A DNA stretch of 50,979 nucleotides, from IMG/VR virus record IMGVR_UViG_2526164596_000013. One strand, written 5' to 3'. Source of the DNA: a virus. Its lineage: Duplodnaviria > Heunggongvirae > Uroviricota > Caudoviricetes. The notes under the pieces were generated by a model that saw only the letters and a program-made list of their open reading frames with translations, was not told the origin of the DNA and did not search any database. The translations under genes and the position numbers were made by a program. This document shows positions 1-39,468 of this stretch, piece after piece; positions within the stretch are counted from its first letter, which is position 1, and every line of letters begins with the position of its first letter.

Positions 1-573
1 GTGTTATCTTACTTAATAGCAATTCATTTTGTTTTACTTGGGAATTCTTCTGATTTAAAAAGCTTTTGGAAATCTGAAGTAATACGGCGGGAGTATATGG
101 ATATCTGGAGGCTTTTCAGAGAAAAAAAACAGCGTAACAGGAATTTCCTTTTCTGGTGGCGGCTGGCTAACGAAATGTATATTAATGGTAATAAATTACA
201 TAAGAAAGCTGCTAAAAAGTTAAACAATAAAATAATTAACAAATTTGGTTGCGAGATTGGACTGGGAGCAAAAATTGGAAAAGGGCTAACAATTCCTCAT
301 CACGTTGGAATTGTTGTTCATTTTGCTGTTGATGCTGGTGAAAATTTGGTGTTACGACAGAATACTACGATTGGACAGATAGATGGTGACATACCTGGTT
401 CAAGAGTAAAAATTGGTAGTAACGTTGATATCGGAGCTAATTGTTGCATCATTGGATTATCACGTAAAATCGGGGATAATGTAAAAATAGGCGCAATGTC
501 TTTTATAAATAAAGATATACCATCAAACTGCACATATATAACTAAAAAGAGCGGTGTTGTATTGTATAAATAG
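1..573 (+). CDS. hexapeptide-repeat (left-handed beta-helix) acetyltransferase-like protein; may be 5'-partial at window edge
   Basis: ORF begins at base 1 with GTG; product has tandem [LIV]G-hexapeptide repeats (GLGAKIGKG, IGSNVDIGANCCIIG, IGDNVKIGAMS); region is markedly AT-rich relative to the phage body; stop TAG 571-573 followed by hairpin terminator. Confidence 0.55.
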   Translation: MLSYLIAIHFVLLGNSSDLKSFWKSEVIRREYMDIWRLFREKKQRNRNFLFWWRLANEMYINGNKLHKKAAKKLNNKIINKFGCEIGLGAKIGKGLTIPHHVGIVVHFAVDAGENLVLRQNTTIGQIDGDIPGSRVKIGSNVDIGANCCIIGLSRKIGDNVKIGAMSFINKDIPSNCTYITKKSGVVLYK

Positions 574-1194: not shown

Positions 1195-4100
1195 TATGCA
1201 AGCCTCACAATATAGTTAAATGCGATGTTTTTGACGGTGTTTTCCGCGTTACCAGCAGCGTTAACGGTGATGGTATGTCCATGTGAACCAATCGCAACGG
1301 AGTGCGTATGAGCACCAATACCGACAGTATGTGCGTGTGCACCTGCGCTTGCAGCAGTACCCGATACAGAGTGCGTATGAGCGCCTGCAGAAGAAGTGTT
1401 AACACTGTATTTAGAATAATCAGGTGATCCACTTCCCGGAGCACCACTGGAACCACCTGAAACAAATGTCATCGAATGGGTATGTGCACCGGCTGAAGCA
1501 GCCGTACCGCTAACACTATGGGTATGCGCACCAGTGTTATTCGTGGATTTAGTGCCGTAATCAAACGACGATGTGGTTTTCGTCCCCAAATCCGTACTGG
1601 ATGCGCTGGCGCTGTGGGTGTGCGATTTAATGCCGTCCTGTTCCTGAGACAATACGGCACGACCACTGGCGGGCTTGCCCTTAATCGTCCAGCCACGCAT
1701 ATCAGGGATCACGCCTGACGGATAAGCAACTGCAAGTTTCGGGTAAGTAGATTTGTCAAAAGTCTGCCCCTGCATCAGGGCATAACCAGACGGAACGGTA
1801 TCTGATGGCCACGGGATTGGTGCACCGACTGGATAAAACTCTGCAGGAGGATGAGCCGAGGTGTAAAGCTGCGCCCACGGCGACCAGTTTGCGTCGGTCG
1901 TATCCCGTCGTGAACGAATAAATGCCGGAGCATGAGCACCGCTTGTACCACTCCAGCCGATGAGTAACTCACCTTCGCCAACGGCTGTCATCCCTTTCAG
2001 GTGAATGATATTTCCATACGCTGTTGGATATCCGTTGTTATACACCTCGTATAACTCAAGACCTGTTGCCCCCTGTGTATTGTCTGTCAGCGCGGTTACC
2101 CGACCTTTTGAAGACAGATTAACTGATGATACTGCTGTTCCACCTGACGGTAACGCCCCGATCTCTGATGCCGTTGGCTTATTTCTGGAGTTATAGTCCC
2201 TTCGCCAGCCAGGTGAATAATCTGTTCCGTGATTAATATAGGTAAACTGGGCGTTAGTTGTTCCACCACCAGTGGAGGTGGTCGGTGTGGTAATGCGGAT
2301 CGTCATCGCTGACTTTATCCCCATTACTTCAATGACAGCTCCGGCGAGATGAATATTACCGCAGCCAGTATCAGTAATGATTTTATTATTGCCATAAGAC
2401 CAGGAACCCTTGCACATCCAGTATGGATGGTTAAATGCTCCCTGAGAATCCAGCCACTCGATAAACTGTGCAGTCGTCCAGTTTCCTGTTGTTGTGCTTA
2501 CTGACCCACCGAAGGCACGGCAGGCACCAATATTTTTCGTAAAGGTGTCTTTGCCAGGGATATCCGCACCGTTCTGATCTTTCTGCAGACGTTTCTCAGC
2601 ATTGTCATTGGCTGCTTTTACTGCCTTTGGCGTTGCCGCCAGCGTTTCAGACGTGCTGTTGGTCGCGCTGCTTAGCTGGATTATCCCTTTCTGTGCTGTC
2701 GTTGCATCCTGTGCGGTGTATTTCCCGTTAGCCAGGTCATACGCGGCCTTAACGGCTTTTGGCGTTGCCGCCAGCGTTTCAGACGTACTGTTGGTCGCAC
2801 TGCTGAGCTGTACTATCCCCTTTTTCGTCGTGCTCGCATCCTCAAGCGCCACGGCGGATGCAATATCCTCTGCCCGTTTTGCCGCTGTCTCAGCGCGCGT
2901 TGCTGCAGATTCCGCCGTACTTTTGCTCTGAGCTGCCGCCGTCGCACTGCCAGCTGCCTCTGTCGCCTTCGTGGATGCCGTCGTGGCGCTACCCTTCGCT
3001 GCTGACGCCTGTCTGGTCGCCTCATCTTTTGAAGCAGACGCAGATGATGCCGATGACGACGCCGAACTGGCTGACGATGCGGCAGCCGTTTTTGAGGATT
3101 CTGCGCTGGTTTCCGACGCTTTCGCGTTCGTTTCGGATGTCTTCGCTGCGGAAGCAGACCTCGCTGCTGCGCTGGCCTGTTCAGTGGCTTCGCCAGCCTT
3201 CGTTGTGGCTGTTGAAGCAGACGATGCGGCGCTTTCTGCCGATTTTCCGGCGGCGGTGGCACTGGCTGAGGCCTGCCCGGCACTTGTTGACGCTGCACTG
3301 GCAGACGACGCAGCCGCTGTTTTTGAGCCTGCCGCAGCCGAGGCGCTCTGTCCCGCTGCCGTTTCAGAAGACCTGGCGTTCGTCTCTGACGTTTTTGCCG
3401 CCTTCGCGGAATTTCCTGCCGCTGTTGCCGAGGAAGCTGCGCTACTGGCGCTCGAGGATGCGTTCGTTTCTGATGATTTTGCCGCCTCTTTTGAAGCCGC
3501 CGCATCCCGGGCTGAGGTGGCAGCTTCTGACGCTTTCGTAGTCGCGGTGGATGCAGAAGTGGCTGCTGATTGTTGTGACGCTGCAGCATTCGTTTCTGAC
3601 GTTTTCGCGGCACTGGCACTGGTAGCTGCCGCGCTTTTTGAGGACTCTGCAGCGGCAGCACTTTTTGATGCTTCAGTGGCCTTTGTTGATGCCGTTCCTG
3701 CGCTGGAAGTCGCTGACTGAGCCGACGACGCGGCCTGTCCGGCTGACGTGCTGGCTGCGCGTGCTGAGCCTGCAGCATCAGTCGCATGGGTTGCCGCCTC
3801 ACGGGCTGATGTGCTGGCATCACTGGCTGACTTCTTCGCGGCTGCCGTGTTCTGTGCCACCACGGACGCGTTACGCGCCACCTCTTCCACCATCAGCTCA
3901 AAACGGCGCAGTGCCTCCGGACGGGCATCATCCTCCGTCATGGCACCGAGAAAATCATTCAGCGTACCGGGTCGGGAATCTTCATACACTGTGATGGTCC
4001 CGGCATGTGACGGTGGGAATCCTTCCACCAACAGAATAACGCTGTACTGACCGTACTCAACGTCCATACTGTAACGCCCGGCTTCATCCGGATTTTCAGA

Positions 4101-4948: not shown

Positions 4949-7900
4949 TCAGCTGATACTGATGCCTGCGGTGGCTTTCTTCATCACCACAACCAGCAAA
5001 TCGCTGATACTTGCTGTGGGATACCAGTTATTCACCAGCCATGCTGACACCGAAAACTCCAGTGTCATGTGACCGTGACCGGCAGGCATATCAATAACAC
5101 CACTGTAAATCAGCGTATTATCCAGCGCGGTACGGTTATAAATTTCAGCACCGTTTTTCCGCACTATCAGACGGCATGAGGAGTAAATATCAGTATGCTC
5201 TTTCTCATGTTTAGCGCCGCTGAATGCCACCGCCGGAATAACAATCTGCCGGTCAAACGGCTGATCGTCATAAACCCTGACGGTAATGGTCCCTGATGGC
5301 CACCGCTCCGGTGCACGGGAGTCCCGGGGGAAAGCTTTGCCCACTGTTTTAACGAGATCGCCTTCAATCTGGTTGGCGGACAGTTTTCCCAGAACCCGAC
5401 AGTTTTCGTTAATCGTGACGTTGTTGAGCGTCCCGGAGTTCGCATTCACGTTACCGCTGATATCGGCATTTTTCGCCGTCAGCCGCCCGTCCGGTGTCAG
5501 GGAAAATGCCGGAGGATTACCGCCGCTGGTAATGGTGGGAGCCGTCAGGTATTTCAGGAACACTTCGTTCATGAATATCTGATCGCCCTGACCAACAAAC
5601 ATCGGCTTTGTGTTGCCATTCGCAGGATTAATCATCGCAATCCGGTCAGCAGCCAGAAGCACCTGACTCTGCATACCTGCTGGCGTATTCTCAATACCGG
5701 CTCCGATACCCGCAATATAAAGGCGTCCGTCCTTCATCTGCTGCAGTTTCACGGCCCACATGCTGTTCAGGTTATTATTTGTATCAACCTGAACTTTCTG
5801 TATCTGCTGGATTGCCGCGCTCTGATTTTCCAGTTTTTTATTGACGGTCTGCGTGATTTCATTGCTGACATTCGTAATGGACGTCCTGATTTCAGCCAGA
5901 TCAGGCGCAAGCTGACCGTTATCAATCTGTGTCCACAACTCCTGAGCCAGATGGGTTTTCCCTATCTCTCCTTTGAAAAAATCCAGATAGCCGGATGCAT
6001 CATCACTCGGCTGGCCAACAGCCTCCACAAATGCCGATTTGCCAACAGTATTCACACTGCGGATATAAAAATAATAATCATGGCCCGGTTTGATATTGAT
6101 ACTGGCAGCTATCCAGTACAGCGCCGAGCCAAGATAGCGGGCTGCGGTTTCAACCTGCCTGATATCCGCAATCCGCTTTTCCGAGAACCAGAACTCAAAC
6201 TGTACCGTCGGGTCATAAACGGCAAGATGCGGCGTGGCGGTTATCTGAAAATAGCCCGGCGTCAGCTCAATCCGCGACGGTGCTGCCGGTGCGGCAATCC
6301 GGAAGGTGGTGGTGGCAGGTTCACCCTGCTGGCCATAGCTGTTTATCGCCCGCACCGTCAGGGTGTATTCCCCGAGCGGCAGGCCGCTGAAACGGTGCTC
6401 CGTGTCTGCGGTGATGGCGGTGGTCACCAGTCTGGCATCCGTTCCCTTACCACTGGTCAGGCGCAGACTGAAGCGCACACCCTTCACCACCCGCGGCGTG
6501 TCCCATTTCGCCTGCGCCAGATACTGGCCGTCAGCTGCGCTCACCTCCACCGTCAGGTGCTGCACTGCCGGTGGGATGACGCTGTTCAGGGAACCTGACT
6601 GCGGCTCAAAGCGGGCACCGTTATCCACGATGGCTTCTTTTTCCGGTACGTGCTGCACCGCCGTGATGGCAAAGGTGCCGTCCGTGTTTTCCCGGATGGA
6701 GACACAGCGGAACAGGCGACGGCGCAGTGACGGCAGGGAGAGTCCCCACACCCCGTATGTCTCCACACCATCAGGCAGGGTACTGACCTGTATCCGGTCC
6801 GGCGCGGGGTGTTCGGTGATGTCCACACTCACCGGCTTACCGCTGCCGTTAATCAGGTTCACCGTGGCGGCACCGGTCTCCGGAAGTGTCACTTCACGGT
6901 CCAGCGTCAGGGTGCGGGTGGCAGCATCAATGGACAGGACACGTCCGCCGGTCAGAGTCCCGGCATAGTCGTTATCACAGATTTCAATGATGTCACCGGG
7001 TGTGTGCCGCAGCCCCTGAGACCCGAGCGTGAAATCCACCGTCTGCGTTTCCAGCAGTTCAGTCTTTATCACCCACAGTCCGGCACGGTGGGCCTGACCG
7101 CGGCTGGTACAGCCGAACGCGTCCATCTTCAGCAGGTTGCGTCCGTAGCGCAGTATGGCTTCCGGGTCTTCCACCAGTTCCGTGGAGGTCTGCCAGCCGT
7201 TCTGCGGGTCGGTGTAATTCACCTCCACCGCCGTGTGCCGGTCCTTCAGGGCACTGAAGCTGTAGCGGAATCCCACGCCGTTATCATCCACCACCACATC
7301 GCTGTTGGTGTACGGCCACACCACATCCGACGGGCGGTCCTGAACGAACGTCAGCGTCTGACCGTTCCATACCGGCATACAGCGCATCGCAGAGCAGAAA
7401 TCACTGAGAACGTCCCACGCCTTACGCTGTTGTGCCAGGTACGCATTAAAGGTCATCCGCGGCTCTGTCCCCCCGAAACCATCCGGGACCGTCTGGTCGC
7501 AGTACTGCCCGATGGCATACAGCGCCCACTTGTCCACATCCGCCGCCCCCAGACGTTTTCCCATGCCGTAGCGCGGGTGAGTCAGCATGTCCCACAGGCA
7601 CCAGGCCGGGTTGTTGCTGTATGCCGGTTTCAGACTGCCGTCCCAGATACCACTGTACGTGCGTTTTTCCGGGTCATAGTTTGACGGCACCTGGATGATG
7701 CGACCGCGGATATGGTAGTTCACCGTCATCTGCTGGCCGCCGAACTGCTCCGCATCCACCTGCAGCCCCACAATGGCCGTGTTCGGGTAGCACTGTTTCA
7801 CATCGATGATTTCGGTGTATGACGACCACAGCGTCTTATTCTGCAGCTGGTCCGTGGTGCTGTCCGCCGTCTCCCTGACCATCCGGATGTTAAAGGGCCG

Positions 7901-8422
7901 GGGAGGCAGATTATCCAGAATCACCGAGGCCAGGAACTGTGAGGTGGTCTTGCCGTTAATGGTGACGTCCTTTTCCGTCACCCAGCGGCCATTACGCTGT
8001 AACTGAATCAGAATCCGGACAGAGGAAGGATTACGGTCGCCCTTTGACGTGGTCTGCACCAGTGACTGCACCCCGAAGGTAACCCGCAGGCGGTCAATGT
8101 TCGCGGACGTAATGGTGCGCGTCACCGGTTTTGCCTTCGTCACTTCCACGCCCAGTCCGGTTTCAGCTCCGGAGGACTCAAAGCCTTCCGGTGGTGTCTG
8201 CTCCTGCTCCCCGGCGCGCCAGACCGCCGTCACACCGTGTATCACGGGATTGCCGTCCGTGTCCGTCAGTGGGGTTTTGTTCACCAGAATACTCTGCAGT
8301 CCCTTCACCGGACCTTCTATCGGTCCCTCACCAATCGCATCAATCACACTCATCATCTGCGTGGATTTGAGATTATCCTTCGCCTCACGAGGCGTGTGTG
8401 CCTTACCGCCACCTTTTCCCAT
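4949..8422 (-). CDS. J: tail tip / host-specificity protein J
   Basis: 1157-aa ORF; N-terminus [37 protein letters not shown] and long internal stretches match lambda J as recalled. Confidence 0.9.
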
Positions 8423-8627
8423 ACAGCCTTCCCCTGAATAAATTAACCGCCACTTGCCATTCCGTACAGAAGTCGGATATCCTTCGCCCGAAAAGCATGA
8501 AACACATTTCTGCCATGCTAAAGAGAAACCCCGGTATCAGCAGATACCGGGGTTTTCTTTCATGCCCACCGATAATCCTGTTGGTTAAAACCGGTAATGG
8601 CATAAAAATTCTGAATATCTTCACATT

Positions 8628-8760
8628 TTCACACACTGACTGTGGCGCTTATAATTTCGCTGCGTTAGTGTTTTTTTGCCCGAGTAACAAAAACAACTCC
8701 TTAACATTGATCTTCATTTGTCTGTCCCCGCAGCTCCGCGATCACTGCGGGATTTTTTTA
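8628..8760 (+). ncRNA. candidate small RNA: sigma70-like promoter plus intrinsic terminator inside the I-J intergenic insertion
   Basis: TTCACA (8628-8633) - 16 nt - TATAAT (8650-8655); about 70 nt downstream a hairpin ccccgcag/ctgcggg (8726-8751) followed by attttttta; no convincing ORF in between. Confidence 0.3.
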
Positions 8761-8764
8761 TGTT

Positions 8765-9445
8765 TTATCCCTGTCGCCCGATAACCACGACCGTTCCGCC
8801 CCCGCCTTCATCACGGGTGCTGATGTCCTGGGATATACGGCGGGAGCCAACCAGCATTTCCCCGTAAGGCACCGGCATCGGGTTCCCCTGGGCAATCATG
8901 TTATCCAGCGAGGAAAAGTACGTGTTCTGTCTGCCGTTATCCGTTGCGCGGTAATCCGGTGTTTTTGCCTTCGGGGCCAGCATCTGGGCCACACCGCCCA
9001 GAATCATGCTGGCTCCAAGTGAAAACAGCATCGTGGTGGCAGAAAAACCACCGGCTGCCAGGGCTGAACCCCATAACGCCATTGATGCCCCGGCAGTGAA
9101 GAAAGAGCCCACGATGGCTGCCGCCCCCAGCACAATCTGCAGTCCACCCTTTCCGGCCCCGGCCAGTCGCGGCACAATATGGATGACCGTTCCCTCACCC
9201 AGCTGTTCGTGAAGACGGGCGTACACCGCCTCCGGTGCCGTGTCATAACCGGCAATACGTATCTGGTACCAGCCTTCGTTCATCTGACGGCGAAAGCCCG
9301 GCACCTGTAACGACAGCGCCCGGATGGCTTCCGCTGCCGTGTTCACATACAGGCTGAGGCGGCGGCCAAATCGTTGTAAATCCCCGTGAAGGCAGATGCG
9401 TGCCAGTGGCGGTGACGCCAGACAGAATGCGTTCGTCGTTGCCAT
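8765..9445 (-). CDS. I: tail assembly protein I
   Basis: 226-aa ORF; MATTNAF...ARICLHGDLQRFGRR...TYFSSLDNMIAQGN...VVVIGR matches lambda I as recalled. Confidence 0.8.
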   Translation of the reverse strand: MATTNAFCLASPPLARICLHGDLQRFGRRLSLYVNTAAEAIRALSLQVPGFRRQMNEGWYQIRIAGYDTAPEAVYARLHEQLGEGTVIHIVPRLAGAGKGGLQIVLGAAAIVGSFFTAGASMALWGSALAAGGFSATTMLFSLGASMILGGVAQMLAPKAKTPDYRATDNGRQNTYFSSLDNMIAQGNPMPVPYGEMLVGSRRISQDISTRDEGGGGTVVVIGRQG

Positions 9446-15318: not shown

Positions 15319-15714
15319 TCACATCTCGTATGTAATGGAATAAGTCAGATCCGCAGAGCTCCATAACGCCATATCGTCATCACGACGATACTCATAGCCC
15401 TGCGTAACCATCGTGGTAATCAGTCCTGCCAGTGCCGGGATCGCAGTCATCGCCGGATAAATCCGGCTTTCCATCCACTGATCAAGCTCTGAATCCGGTA
15501 CCTGTGCCGGTAAAAACACCTCAATATGCAGTGTGGCCCGCCAGGTATCTGCATCCAGCTCTTCACCGGTATACTCTGCATCCGTCAGATAAACCGCGAT
15601 CGCAGGAAAATCCTCTTCGTCAAAAACAACGGGGCGACCATCAAACAGCGTCGCCCCGTGTTCATGCTGCTCGAGTGCATCCAGCACTGCGGCACGAATG
15701 TCAGTGTGTTTCAT
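15319..15714 (-). CDS. U: tail terminator protein U
   Basis: 131-aa ORF, lambda U length and position. Confidence 0.75.
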
Positions 15715-30445: not shown

Positions 30446-30892
30446 GAATCCTCCCGGCCGGGATAATATTGTGAGTAAAATGAGGAGCGGGCTGAAGTCC
30501 GGAAGTTACAGGACAATGGCAGAAGAGAGACAATAGCCCGCAATACGAAAAAGGCCGCGCTATTGCGCAGAGTGATTACTGTCGGATATTATTCGCCAGC
30601 TGAAATATTACTTCACGTTTTGTTGTTTATTCCTTGCCGCCCGCGTCTCCCTGCGCGGGATTTTTTTGTCCATAAGAAAGCCCCTCCGGAGAGGGCTGGA
30701 GAGTGGCGCTATGTGCCATTGCATGGTGCCGGGTGCCTCCCGGTGAATTCAGTACCAGCACCTGAATCCGCGATTATCCCATATACCTACTCGCTGATTG
30801 CCCCTCCGCACAGGGGGATTCACCATGCCAGTTTCTTTTAACAAACTCCCCGCAAAACAGACAACTGTCAACCGTCTGAATTGTGAGACATT

Positions 30893-30933: not shown

Positions 30934-31010
30934 TGGCGCGTTGTACTGGATTCGAACCAGTGACCGATTGCTTAGAAGGCAATTGCTCTGTCCGGCTGAG
31001 CTAACAACGC
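30934..31010 (-). tRNA. argO: tRNA-Arg (anticodon UCU)
   Basis: rc gives GCGTTGTTAGCTCAGCCGGACAGAGCAATTGCCTTCTAAGCAATCGGTCACTGGTTCGAATCCAGTACAACGCGCCA; cloverleaf with 7-bp acceptor, anticodon loop CTTCTAA, encoded CCA. Confidence 0.85.
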
Positions 31011-31023
31011 AGGGTACAGATAA

Positions 31024-31100
31024 TGGACCGCCATCGAGGACTCGAACCCCGCGCAACCAGCTTCGAAGGCTGGCGCTCTATCCTGATGAGCTAATGGCGG
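31024..31100 (-). tRNA. argN: tRNA-Arg (anticodon UCG)
   Basis: rc gives CCGCCATTAGCTCATCAGGATAGAGCGCCAGCCTTCGAAGCTGGTTGCGCGGGGTTCGAGTCCTCGATGGCGGTCCA; anticodon loop CTTCGAA; acceptor stem CCGCCAT/ATGGCGG; encoded CCA. Confidence 0.75.
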
Positions 31101-31107
31101 TATGTGA

Positions 31108-31179
31108 TGGTGGCCCTTGCTGGATTTGAACCAGCGACCTGGCGATTATGAGTCGCTCTCACCACTGAGCTAAAGGGCC
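31108..31179 (-). tRNA. ileZ: tRNA-like gene with CAU anticodon (Ile2/Met-type), atypically short
   Basis: rc gives GGCCCTTTAGCTCAGTGGTGAGAGCGACTCATAATCGCCAGGTCGCTGGTTCAAATCCAGCAAGGGCCACCA (72 nt); good acceptor and T arms, loop CTCATAA, but the anticodon stem 5' side appears about 4 nt short. Confidence 0.55.
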
Positions 31180-38617: not shown

Positions 38618-39468
38618 GGGCGAACCTCCTTGTCAGAACCATTCAGCCTGGAATCAACAAGTGCAGCGCCAAAAACAGCATCACCAACACGGTCGTACAG
38701 TTTGCTAGCCAGCGGAGATTCAACGGCCTTAAGCATTGGATAAAGCTGGCTTGTCCAGATTTGATGGATTTCACGCAAATGCAGGTATACGCCTCTGGCG
38801 TTTCGTGCGACAGCTGACATATCAACCGCGTCAGCACCAGATAAATTCTTCTCCATCTGGTTAAAGGCGTTGATGTATGCCTCTTTGAACTGGGCAGCAC
38901 GTTTACCAGTGAAGCCCATGGCAAGAAACGCAAAACCGTCGCGGGTGATTTGGTAACAAGGGAGTTTGCGGCCTGATGCGTCGGTGTATTCACTTAACAC
39001 AAAATTGTGTTCAGTAAATTCAGCGGAACATTCGAGGTTTCTAATTCTATCTAAAACCCGCTCATGCCGTTTAGTAAAGTAATTAGCTACTGCAAGAGAT
39101 GTGGTGACAACGCGACCATTGATAATCGTGATTTCAGGGCGAGATTGGGTTGGGAGAGTAGTCATGGTGACAGCCCCTATGTTGAATTCAATGAACTCAC
39201 CACCAAGGCTTTCCACGACCATATAGGTGGTGAGACGTACAGGGGTGGAAATACCGGTCAACATAGAACCCGGCCCAACCGAAGTTGGCCCTGCACGCCC
39301 CACCATAATTTGGGCGTAACGATGCTCATGACACGAAAAAACCGCATGAGCGCGGTTGTGCTCTATATTGAATTTCGGGTTTCCACGCCCGGCACCCGCT
39401 TTATAAGGTGCAGAGACAGTGTAACGTCCCGAAATTGCAGAATCAATATTTGGTCTTGAAATGATCAT
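38614..39468 (-). CDS. phage regulatory protein, Rha-family domain in C-terminal half
   Basis: segment VVTTSLAVANYFTKRHERVLDRIRNLE...FVLSEYTDASGRKLPCYQITRDGFAFLAMGFTGKRAAQFKEAYINAF resembles the Rha phage-regulator domain as recalled; N-terminal 110 aa unassigned. Confidence 0.5.
   Translation of the reverse strand: MIISRPNIDSAISGRYTVSAPYKAGAGRGNPKFNIEHNRAHAVFSCHEHRYAQIMVGRAGPTSVGPGSMLTGISTPVRLTTYMVVESLGGEFIEFNIGAVTMTTLPTQSRPEITIINGRVVTTSLAVANYFTKRHERVLDRIRNLECSAEFTEHNFVLSEYTDASGRKLPCYQITRDGFAFLAMGFTGKRAAQFKEAYINAFNQMEKNLSGADAVDMSAVARNARGVYLHLREIHQIWTSQLYPMLKAVESPLASKLYDRVGDAVFGAALVDSRLNGSDKEVRP

Follow-up and report, generated by a model that had tools for sequence, protein, structure and literature searches.

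PasB (pathogenicity-associated sRNA B) was described in EPEC O127:H6 strain E2348/69 as an sRNA of 83 nt, encoded on the minus strand of NC_011601.1 (1466343..1466261) within prophage PP6, between E2348C_1436 and E2348C_1437 (table S6, PMC8550237). It produced a Northern band of the predicted size, was present at a higher level in overnight static LB than in DMEM and depended on Hfq for its stability; the log2 fold change of pasB in the comparison of the wild type with delta-hfq, as calculated with DESeq2, was −6.8 under activating and −2.4 under non-activating conditions (PMC8550237). PasB was recovered as the second RNA in RIL-seq chimeras, its partners in the activating condition being bfpB, bfpI, ftsZ, galE, ler, perB and rplX (PMC8550237). 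It contacts mRNAs of ler and per, the master regulators of virulence, and ranks among the most abundant accessory sRNAs bound to Hfq in EPEC. No function was assigned to PasB in that work or in the later study of Zhu, Shabalina & Storz (PMC8550237; bioRxiv 10.64898/2026.05.13.724894).

In the EHEC strain O157:H7 Sakai, homologous Hfq-CRAC peaks were named EcOnc22, EcOnc23 and EcOnc24 and were located in prophages Sp15, Sp14 and Sp11 respectively (Tree et al. 2014, table S2, PMC4104026); EcOnc22 yielded a Northern band of ~85 nt that was destabilised in delta-hfq (PMC4104026). The anti-sRNAs AgvB and AsxR and the sRNA HnrS, also from EHEC (PMC4104026, PMC13502914), are like PasB short Hfq-dependent non-coding morons of lambdoid prophages, occur in multiple copies by way of several prophages and join a terminator part that is conserved to a targeting part that varies. 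HnrS additionally shares the motif AAUCUUC with PasB and pairs with an AGAAG ribosome-binding site (PMC13502914). Unlike PasB, these genes are situated downstream of PR'/lysis genes and not in the tail operon, HnrS lying after Rz, and they have no homology to PasB beyond the short motif. HnrS (EcOnc10-12, 66 nt) was considered and rejected as an identity for the RNA described below, as in Sp9 and Sp12 it follows Rz, and the window lacks its terminator motif. The Rfam models for AgvB and AsxR gave no match in the window.

The sequence analysed here, referred to as the window, is the whole stretch of 50,979 nucleotides from the tailed-phage record IMGVR_UViG_2526164596_000013. Its tail genes are on the minus strand, and the 342-bp gap between tail genes I and J which the sequence-only reading had pointed out was exact at 8423-8764: the gpJ ORF occupies 4949..8422 on the minus strand (1157 aa, six gpJ/tail-tip domains in Pfam) and the gene I ORF occupies 8765..9445 on the same strand (226 aa, Lambda_tail_I in Pfam). 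The accompanying remark that I and J are essentially contiguous in lambda was slightly overstated, as lambda has a gap of 60 bp (15445-15504), which itself contains a hairpin and a T-run. Of 5426 complete E. coli genomes, 1612 contained the full 342-bp gap, a recurrence which argues that it is more than a chance spacer, and among the matches listed there was no annotated feature beneath it.

The right half of this gap, 8599-8764, can be identified as the pasB gene with a probability of about 0.9, that is, as the gene for an Hfq-dependent prophage sRNA of ~83-98 nt. This 166-bp module on the plus strand, consisting of promoter, sRNA and terminator, is 98.2% identical to the E2348/69 locus and is placed between the I stop codon and a J-proximal module. 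When the table S6 coordinates were transferred by alignment, the published 83-nt PasB fell at 8677..8759 on the plus strand, and 82 of the 83 nt were identical between EPEC E2348/69 and the window. When reverse-complemented, the published Northern probe, AATCCCGCAGTGATCGCGGAGCT (table S6, PMC8550237; Pearl Mizrahi et al. 2021), matches 8732-8754 exactly; this is its single site in the window, where none is expected by chance. The sole difference within the sRNA is an A at 8703 (position 27), which is a C in E2348/69. PasB and PasB-2 differ at this same position 27 (Zhu, Shabalina & Storz 2026, bioRxiv 10.64898/2026.05.13.724894), and by sequence the window allele is most likely the PasB-2 variant. 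Because of the probe match, the 98.2% identity of the locus and the difference at position 27, the feature is taken to be the pasB gene, most likely PasB-2. The feature had thus been described before under the name PasB, and probably under EcOnc22-24 as well.

The setting of the gene is equally shared. In E2348/69, a gene annotated as 'tail assembly protein' and one annotated as 'phage attachment tail tip protein J' flank pasB, which is antisense to both, so that the two loci have in common the I-J junction of a lambdoid prophage and the strand opposite the tail genes. The window copy has its own promoter and a 3' stem-loop with poly-U; promoter and terminator are identical to those of E2348/69, including the stem and the U7. 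The two gaps differ on the J side, the E2348/69 gap being 240 bp, with a 77-bp J-proximal segment of its own in place of the 176-bp module of the window. The sequence-only reading had predicted a plus-strand transcript of about 100 nt at 8660-8760, antisense to the tail operon, which corresponds to the 83-nt PasB detected by Northern blotting in E2348/69 (PMC8550237); its guess at a regulatory RNA is borne out by the Hfq dependence of PasB in that strain and by its chimeras with mRNAs (PMC8550237). That reading had treated the whole gap as the locus of a candidate sRNA. The sRNA is real, but it was already known and named, and it takes up the right 166 bp, while the left part is a separate module next to J. 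The data for a stable Hfq-dependent transcript of ~83 nt come from the E2348/69 copy and the Sakai EcOnc22 allele only.

Rfam 15 gave no gathering-level match in 8423-8764, either in a search of the whole window or in an E-value search of 8350-8850, and the best sub-threshold matches in the gap scored at most 27 bits, which is chance level. On these searches PasB is without a family in Rfam 15, and a validated sRNA gene has been missed by both genome annotation and Rfam.

The distribution and variability of the PasB module were assessed in complete E. coli genomes and in a junction sample comprising the I-J regions of 80 IMG/VR loci, 12 genome contigs, E2348/69 and Sakai. A search at word size 11 located 5544 copies of the 166-bp module, spread over 1813 of the 5426 genomes, with identities of 70-100% and as many as 11 places in one genome. 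It was also present in 147 phage records, mostly Stx-converting phages, and in inducible phages such as ASU11, which was obtained by mitomycin C induction. In the account of Zhu et al., PasB hardly varies and is mostly single-copy (bioRxiv 10.64898/2026.05.13.724894), probably because their search of bacterial genomes used a word size of 28 and filtered matches at 75% coverage. Across 29 distinct alleles the shared elements were an upstream box, the position of the −10, GCGTTA at 8662-8667, a U-run, an A-A-N tract, a pyrimidine-rich core and the terminator CCCGCAG...CUGCGGGAU6-8; the rest of the module (leader, spacer, terminator loop and even the −35) diverged by 20-35%. A spacer unconserved in sequence among relatives, which had been named beforehand as evidence against the sRNA, is not what was found: in the 29 alleles the upstream box and the terminator are invariant and the core is nearly so.

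Comparison of the junctions indicated that the gap is made up of two independently assorting modules. In at least 21 loci the J-proximal 176 bp were 100% identical to the window while the PasB module was only ~81% identical; loci of the E2348/69 type had a PasB module ~98% identical to that of the window and a different J-proximal segment (77 bp). In 50-nt windows the PasB body formed the deepest identity trough, at 64-72%, between flanks of 98-100%, and other mosaic troughs of similar depth were seen nearby in coding sequence. Neither the two modules nor the ancestral hairpin described below was found in the PasB papers (PMC8550237; bioRxiv 10.64898/2026.05.13.724894), and the same is true of the distribution in 1813 of 5426 genomes, the invariant elements and the sodC gene in the gap of relatives.

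The promoter proposed in the sequence-only reading, TTCACA-N16-TATAAT at 8628-8655 on the plus strand, matched the sigma-70 consensus at 11 of 12 positions. A scan of 7900-9300 located three promoter-like sites against 1.0 expected from shuffles. Among the 29 alleles and Sakai Sp15, the −10 position was kept in every allele and the −35 was lost in the diverged ones. Immediately upstream is the box ATAAAAATTCTGAATATCTTCACATT (8602-8627, plus strand), which in the form ATAAAAnTTCTGAATnTCTTCACATT was invariant across the 29 alleles. The box contains TCTGA-N6-TCACA at 8610-8625, a 9/10 match to the CRP core; both half-sites were invariant in the 29 alleles and Sakai Sp15, with variation in the N6 spacer alone. 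The distance from the box to the −10 was also kept in diverged alleles although the −35 was lost, and for these two reasons the box is regarded as a candidate activator site. Standard activating positions for CRP, which recognises TGTGA-N6-TCACA, are −41.5 or −61.5. The centre of the element in the window is at approximately −44.5 from the predicted +1 and −60 from the published 5' end, which is not cleanly a class II or a class I position, and the number of CRP-like patterns in the window was not above chance (four found, 1.95 expected). Stationary LB is free of glucose, and the higher PasB level there agrees with a role of CRP without being specific to it. CRP as the activator at the invariant box is treated as a lead only.

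The TATAAT predicts a +1 near G8662, within a region (8662..8676) in which GCGTTA is followed by a U7 run and which is supported by the −10 spacing and by its invariance in the alignment; the resulting RNA would be 98 nt. The published 5' end, deduced from read coverage and band size, transfers to 8677 (PMC8550237), 15 nt downstream of this predicted start. It is possible that the coverage-based end is imprecise, that the leader GCGUUAGUGU7 is cut off by processing, or that a second −10, TAGTGT at 8666-8671, is in use; the TAnnnT of this second candidate was kept in every allele.

At the other end, the GC-rich hairpin and T-run which had been noticed downstream of the promoter constitute an intrinsic terminator at 8727..8759 on the plus strand, recognisable by scanning, folding and alignment. 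The 7-bp stem is formed by CCCGCAG (8727-8733) and CTGCGGG (8745-8751) and is followed by T7 at 8753-8759, so that the terminator ends 5 nt from the I stop codon. The terminator scan identified two sites against 1.5 expected. Among alleles the stem was invariant and the loop variable, and RNAalifold of 14 alleles gave a consensus helix of seven pairs consisting of the terminator only. No covariation was detected in the sRNA in these 14 alleles, because the terminator stem never varies, and the structure consequently adds no evidence. The folding energy of the sRNA was not better than that of shuffled sequences (z = −0.9 and −1.3) and the body was predicted to be unstructured. An open body with the terminator as the only helix is common among Hfq sRNAs.

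The sequence features associated with Hfq binding were all present. The U-rich AUUUGUCUGU precedes the terminator stem and U7 follows it, and an (AAN)4 tract, AACAAAAACAAC, is located at 8686..8697 (plus strand), with the A-A-N pattern retained in every allele. On established knowledge of the ARN motif and of Hfq modules (for example refs 17 and 27 of PMC4104026), this tract is a candidate distal-face site. A pyrimidine-rich, single-stranded core at 8692..8715 (plus strand) was nearly invariant and contains CUCCUU (8697-8702) and AUCUUC (8710-8715); its consensus in the 29 alleles was AAYUCC.U ... UURAUCUUC at 8695-8715. Complementarity was scanned with 14-nt windows of E2348/69 PasB against six RIL-seq target fragments, with mononucleotide-shuffled targets as the control. 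The sole consistent excess was given by AACAACUCCUUCACAUUG, which corresponds to 8692-8709 (mean z of approximately −2.1 over the six targets with this simple shuffle), the best windows for individual targets ranging from −1.4 to −5.4. This stretch includes the anti-Shine-Dalgarno-like CUCCUU and, immediately 3' of it, the position-27 polymorphism at 8703. Zhu et al. place their proposed seed a few nucleotides further downstream, directly before the terminator (bioRxiv 10.64898/2026.05.13.724894), where the invariant AUCUUC is found. Both the CUCCUU region and AUCUUC are candidate seeds. Unrestricted RNAduplex comparison of PasB with the target fragments yielded long duplexes that were no better than those of shuffles.

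In the current Sakai record, the coordinates of EcOnc22-24 lead to 240-bp gaps that separate a 'tail assembly protein' gene from a 'host specificity protein' gene, and the strand is the one opposite to these tail genes. As these coordinates, published in 2014, refer to an older sequence version, the shift was estimated from a 55-nt terminator-bearing sequence common to Sp9 and Sp12, which we take to be HnrS (EcOnc12 and EcOnc10). A shift of approximately +125 to +145 nt was required in Sp9 and Sp12 alike, or about +130. Once shifted, the EcOnc22 peak covers positions ~1343-1405 of locus L095, which is the body of a diverged PasB-like allele from the U-run to the start of the CCCGCAG stem, and on this sequence evidence PasB and EcOnc22-24 appear to be one family. 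EcOnc22-24 resemble the window in the upstream box, the AAUCUUC core, the CCCGCAG/CUGCGGG-U7 terminator, the strand logic and the location in the I-J gap; they differ from it in a diverged body, another leader, the loop CUCCGCUAACU and differing −35 and −10 (AATAAT) elements. The equivalence was not found stated in PMC4104026 or in the PasB papers, and table S6 lists EHEC homologues for PasA and PasD only (PMC8550237). Sakai Sp12 holds a gap of the window type, one 1-nt deletion apart and with an identical sRNA sequence, and no Hfq-CRAC peak is listed on this allele in table S2 of PMC4104026. This is weak negative evidence. The missing peak may be due to a similarity of those cultures to the condition with little PasB, and it fits a low level of PasB in virulence-inducing medium.

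The left, J-proximal module (8423..8598, 176 bp) is absent from E2348/69 and includes the J Shine-Dalgarno at 8427-8434 on the minus strand. The second hairpin and T-run reported in the sequence-only reading at 8527-8560 is genuine and very stable, but belongs to this separate module next to J and not to the sRNA. It is a bidirectional terminator-like structure at 8520..8560 with the stem CCCCGGTATC (8529-8538) and GATACCGGGG (8543-8552), A/T runs on either side and a U-rich tail in both directions, and its folding z-scores against shuffles were −7.3 for the plus and −5.5 for the minus strand. The module was found in 1446 genomes, was essentially invariant and travelled with the J allele; the genome search detected no diverged or elsewhere-placed copies, consistent with a single invariant lineage.

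A hairpin with a U-run on the late strand upstream of J was present in every lambdoid junction examined, lambda included, and this is the reason for considering it ancestral. The 60-bp lambda gap is in essence ACCGCC-TGCG-GGCGGT followed by TTTTGTCATTT and lies upstream of the ribosome-binding site of J; in Enterobacter, Rahnella and Pantoea, the gaps at distant homologues of I measure 42-54 bp and consist of just a GC hairpin and T7; and E. coli types with a short gap have CAGGCAYCC-loop-GGRTGCCTG and TTGTTTTT on the late strand, in which one stem position reads C-G, U-G or U-A, a compensatory series. The lambda hairpin is like that of the window in having, on the late strand, a U-run and a position closely upstream of the ribosome-binding site of J, and unlike it in sequence, the hairpin of the window having U-rich tails in two directions and lying within a 176-bp module. 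We know of no reported function for the lambda I-J hairpin. From these comparisons the hairpin of the window is read as the local version of the ancestral late-strand hairpin, in the same place with unrelated sequence, and the PasB module as an insertion between the I stop codon and this hairpin.

The left module could alternatively generate a second plus-strand sRNA of ~70 nt (~8490-8560), running from a weak promoter-like site, TTGCCA-18-TATCCT at 8454..8483 on the plus strand, to the hairpin. The layout would be typical of an sRNA, with a 5' hairpin (GCAUG...CAUGC) and then a strong terminator with the tail UUUUCUUUC, and the promoter-like site is at the right distance. However, this site matches the consensus at just 9 of 12 positions, the module is a single invariant lineage, and one natural variant (g06) lacks the hairpin by deletion. 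All other gap types and lambda, moreover, have the hairpin U-tail on the late strand only, and the only Rfam likeness was a non-significant one to STnc310 (19 bits, E = 0.4). A second sRNA from this module is considered unlikely.

The pasB gene is in this view a moron-type insertion between gene I and the ancestral hairpin preceding J, transcribed from its own sigma-70 promoter opposite to the tail genes and ending at the intrinsic terminator. For the E2348/69 copy, identical at 82 of 83 nt, it was demonstrated that the RNA accumulates in lysogens, mainly in stationary LB, that its abundance depends on Hfq and that it is ligated on Hfq to mRNAs such as ler, perB, bfpB, bfpI, ftsZ and galE. Beyond an Hfq-dependent sRNA with many RIL-seq partners, we infer the following mechanism. 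Hfq would be bound through the U-rich terminator module and the (AAN)4 tract, base-pairing would take place through the unstructured pyrimidine-rich core (CUCCUU at 8697-8702 and AUCUUC at 8710-8715), and the translation or stability of the targets would be altered as a result.

PasB might instead act mainly in cis, pairing with the I-J part of the late tail transcript, with trans targets being secondary. RNase III cleavage or transcriptional interference would then reduce the synthesis of J, the tail tip, which could damp spontaneous induction or affect incoming phages with the same allele. PasB is perfectly complementary to the I-J intercistronic transcript and pasB is antisense to I-J at the same spot in all alleles, but such complementarity is trivial for any inserted antisense gene. 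The sRNA body is the deepest trough of divergence between flanks of 98-100% identity, although mosaic troughs of similar depth occur in the nearby coding sequence. The pasB alleles assort independently of the J-proximal module, and the complement of the PasB terminator is without a U-tail on the late strand, so that late transcription would not be stopped there. Against this, PasB is abundant on Hfq with trans partners, and the gap of relatives with sodC retains a PasB-like body without its promoter. A principally cis-acting PasB is, on this balance, quite improbable.

The allele comparison also raises the tentative and rather doubtful idea that PasB-type genes are a hypervariable family of phage-borne regulators, acting both in antisense and in trans, which is fixed at the I-J junction. 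If so, the body would diversify for allele-specific action on the late transcript or for new host targets, the former amounting to control of J synthesis, of spontaneous induction or of competition between related prophages. A host factor at TCTGA-N6-TCACA, possibly cAMP-CRP, would switch transcription, and a cAMP-CRP switch would fit the finding that stationary LB gives more PasB than glucose-rich DMEM. Such a family would also be far larger than reported, taking in PasB and EcOnc22-24 with up to 11 copies per EHEC genome. Handles on the function of PasB are the apparent PasB/EcOnc22-24 family, the two-module gap around the ancestral hairpin, the candidate operator, the candidate seed CUCCUU/AUCUUC and the position-27 difference at 8703 inside the stretch favoured by the duplex scan (8692-8709).

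It is very improbable that the promoter-like and terminator-like motifs are insulators, or have arisen by chance in a spacer that makes no stable RNA. Single matches to promoter and terminator consensus sequences are common, as the terminator scan illustrates (2 against 1.5 expected), and the fold z-scores of the sRNA are weak. However, a locus 98% identical across promoter, body and terminator produces a Northern-validated RNA (PMC8550237), the Sakai allele has Hfq-CRAC peaks and a band of ~85 nt (PMC4104026), and conservation is selective for the upstream box, the −10 position, the core and the terminator. The absence of a stable RNA is already contradicted by the published Northern and RIL-seq data.

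The gap of the window allele includes a 128-aa frame on the plus strand (8398..8784) and a 77-aa ORF on the minus strand (8403..8636), both of which were interrupted, by stop codons or shifts of frame, in the sister alleles of 341, 343, 338, 295 and 240 bp; the earlier statement that no ORF has a credible RBS holds in that there is no Shine-Dalgarno and the frames are broken in sisters, but long open frames do exist here. Protein-coding readings of the gap were rejected on account of these broken frames, and we give almost no credence to a small protein moron (the 128-aa plus ORF or a minus ORF of 66-77 aa), for which there is one open frame across the entire gap, the annotation of the minus ORF in phage ASU11 as hypothetical protein gp9c and the presence of real protein morons in the I-J gaps of relatives (sodC; a 181-aa lipoprotein-like ORF), but against which all frames are disrupted in sister alleles, through differences of 1-5 nt or a deletion of 47 bp, neither start has a Shine-Dalgarno, and the minus ORF runs across the GC hairpin of 10 bp and overlaps the start of J.

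In three loci the I-J gap was 851 bp and carried sodC, encoding a Cu,Zn superoxide dismutase, on the PasB strand; sodC and its own terminator are followed by a body and terminator of PasB type that lack the PasB promoter. Prophage sodC thus has the same insertion point and antisense orientation as pasB and differs from it in being protein cargo, while the window, unlike these relatives, has neither sodC nor a conserved ORF. Two distant relatives had gaps of 582-626 bp, one of them with the 181-aa lipoprotein-like ORF. The term moron, which the sequence-only reading had suggested, is apt because the junction of relatives holds sodC or other cargo.

The I-J gaps of three prophages of E. coli O157 Sakai, Sp15 (1192-1431 of locus L095), Sp11 (L096) and Sp14 (L097), were identical and 240 bp long in each case. 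Given a coordinate shift of approximately +130 nt, these gaps coincide with the Hfq-CRAC peaks EcOnc22, EcOnc24 and EcOnc23 respectively (Tree et al., 2014; PMC4104026), which appears to link the PasB family to EHEC small RNAs described in 2014. A candidate for HnrS, another EHEC prophage sRNA, was located downstream of Rz at 2646-2711 (minus strand) of locus L002 and at ∼371-436 (plus strand) of locus L104; it was recognized by its terminator and by 55 nt that Sp9 and Sp12 share without a difference. Near its 5' end the candidate carries AAUCUUC, the heptamer that is invariant among PasB alleles, and the reported pairing partner of HnrS is an AGAAG ribosome-binding site (PMC4104026, PMC13502914).

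The I-J junction of some relatives harboured additional genes. In three loci (L075, 2182-3032; L078; L092) the gap measured 851 bp. Its PasB strand carried the Cu,Zn superoxide dismutase gene sodC with a terminator of its own, and beyond this came a PasB-like body and terminator lacking the PasB promoter. This promoterless copy may have been silenced or may be of the 3'-UTR type. The 582-bp gap of a Pseudocitrobacter prophage (L086) contained a 181-amino-acid lipoprotein-like ORF in the direction of the tail genes (2136-2681), which is further cargo at this junction. Near-identical E. coli phage I-J sequences were also present on three short genome contigs, L083, L085 and L092, labelled Streptomyces flavalbus, Parendozoicomonas haliclonae and a Clostridiales MAG; these labels most likely reflect contamination or mis-binning rather than true host range.

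A frame of 128 amino acids without stops spans the entire I-J gap of the window allele (8398-8784, plus strand), and in phage ASU11 a 66-amino-acid hypothetical protein, gp9c, is annotated on the opposite strand of the gap (L103 1481-1681, minus strand). Both are interrupted in sister alleles and are probably annotation artefacts. On the late strand, immediately 5' of J, a GC hairpin with a trailing T-run is retained from lambda (L102 746-805, equivalent to lambda 15445-15504) to prophages of Enterobacter, Rahnella and Pantoea, and was located in the I-J gaps of L087, L088, L090, L091 and L094. To our knowledge, no function has been described for this I-J hairpin.

Other structured RNAs were detected on the minus strand of the window. 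An IS009 element at 654-851 (Rfam match, 219 bits against a gathering threshold of 117) fits the PasB neighbourhood, because IS009 and IsrG are the most frequent structured-RNA matches flanking PasB (Zhu et al., 2026; bioRxiv 10.64898/2026.05.13.724894). STnc100 (30668-30857, 129.5 bits), for which the same authors argue a common ancestor with PasD, directly adjoins three tRNA genes (30937-31179). The adjacent C4 antisense RNA (39223-39310, 82 bits) and isrK (39335-39411, 62 bits) are a P1/P7-type immunity RNA pair inside the prophage.
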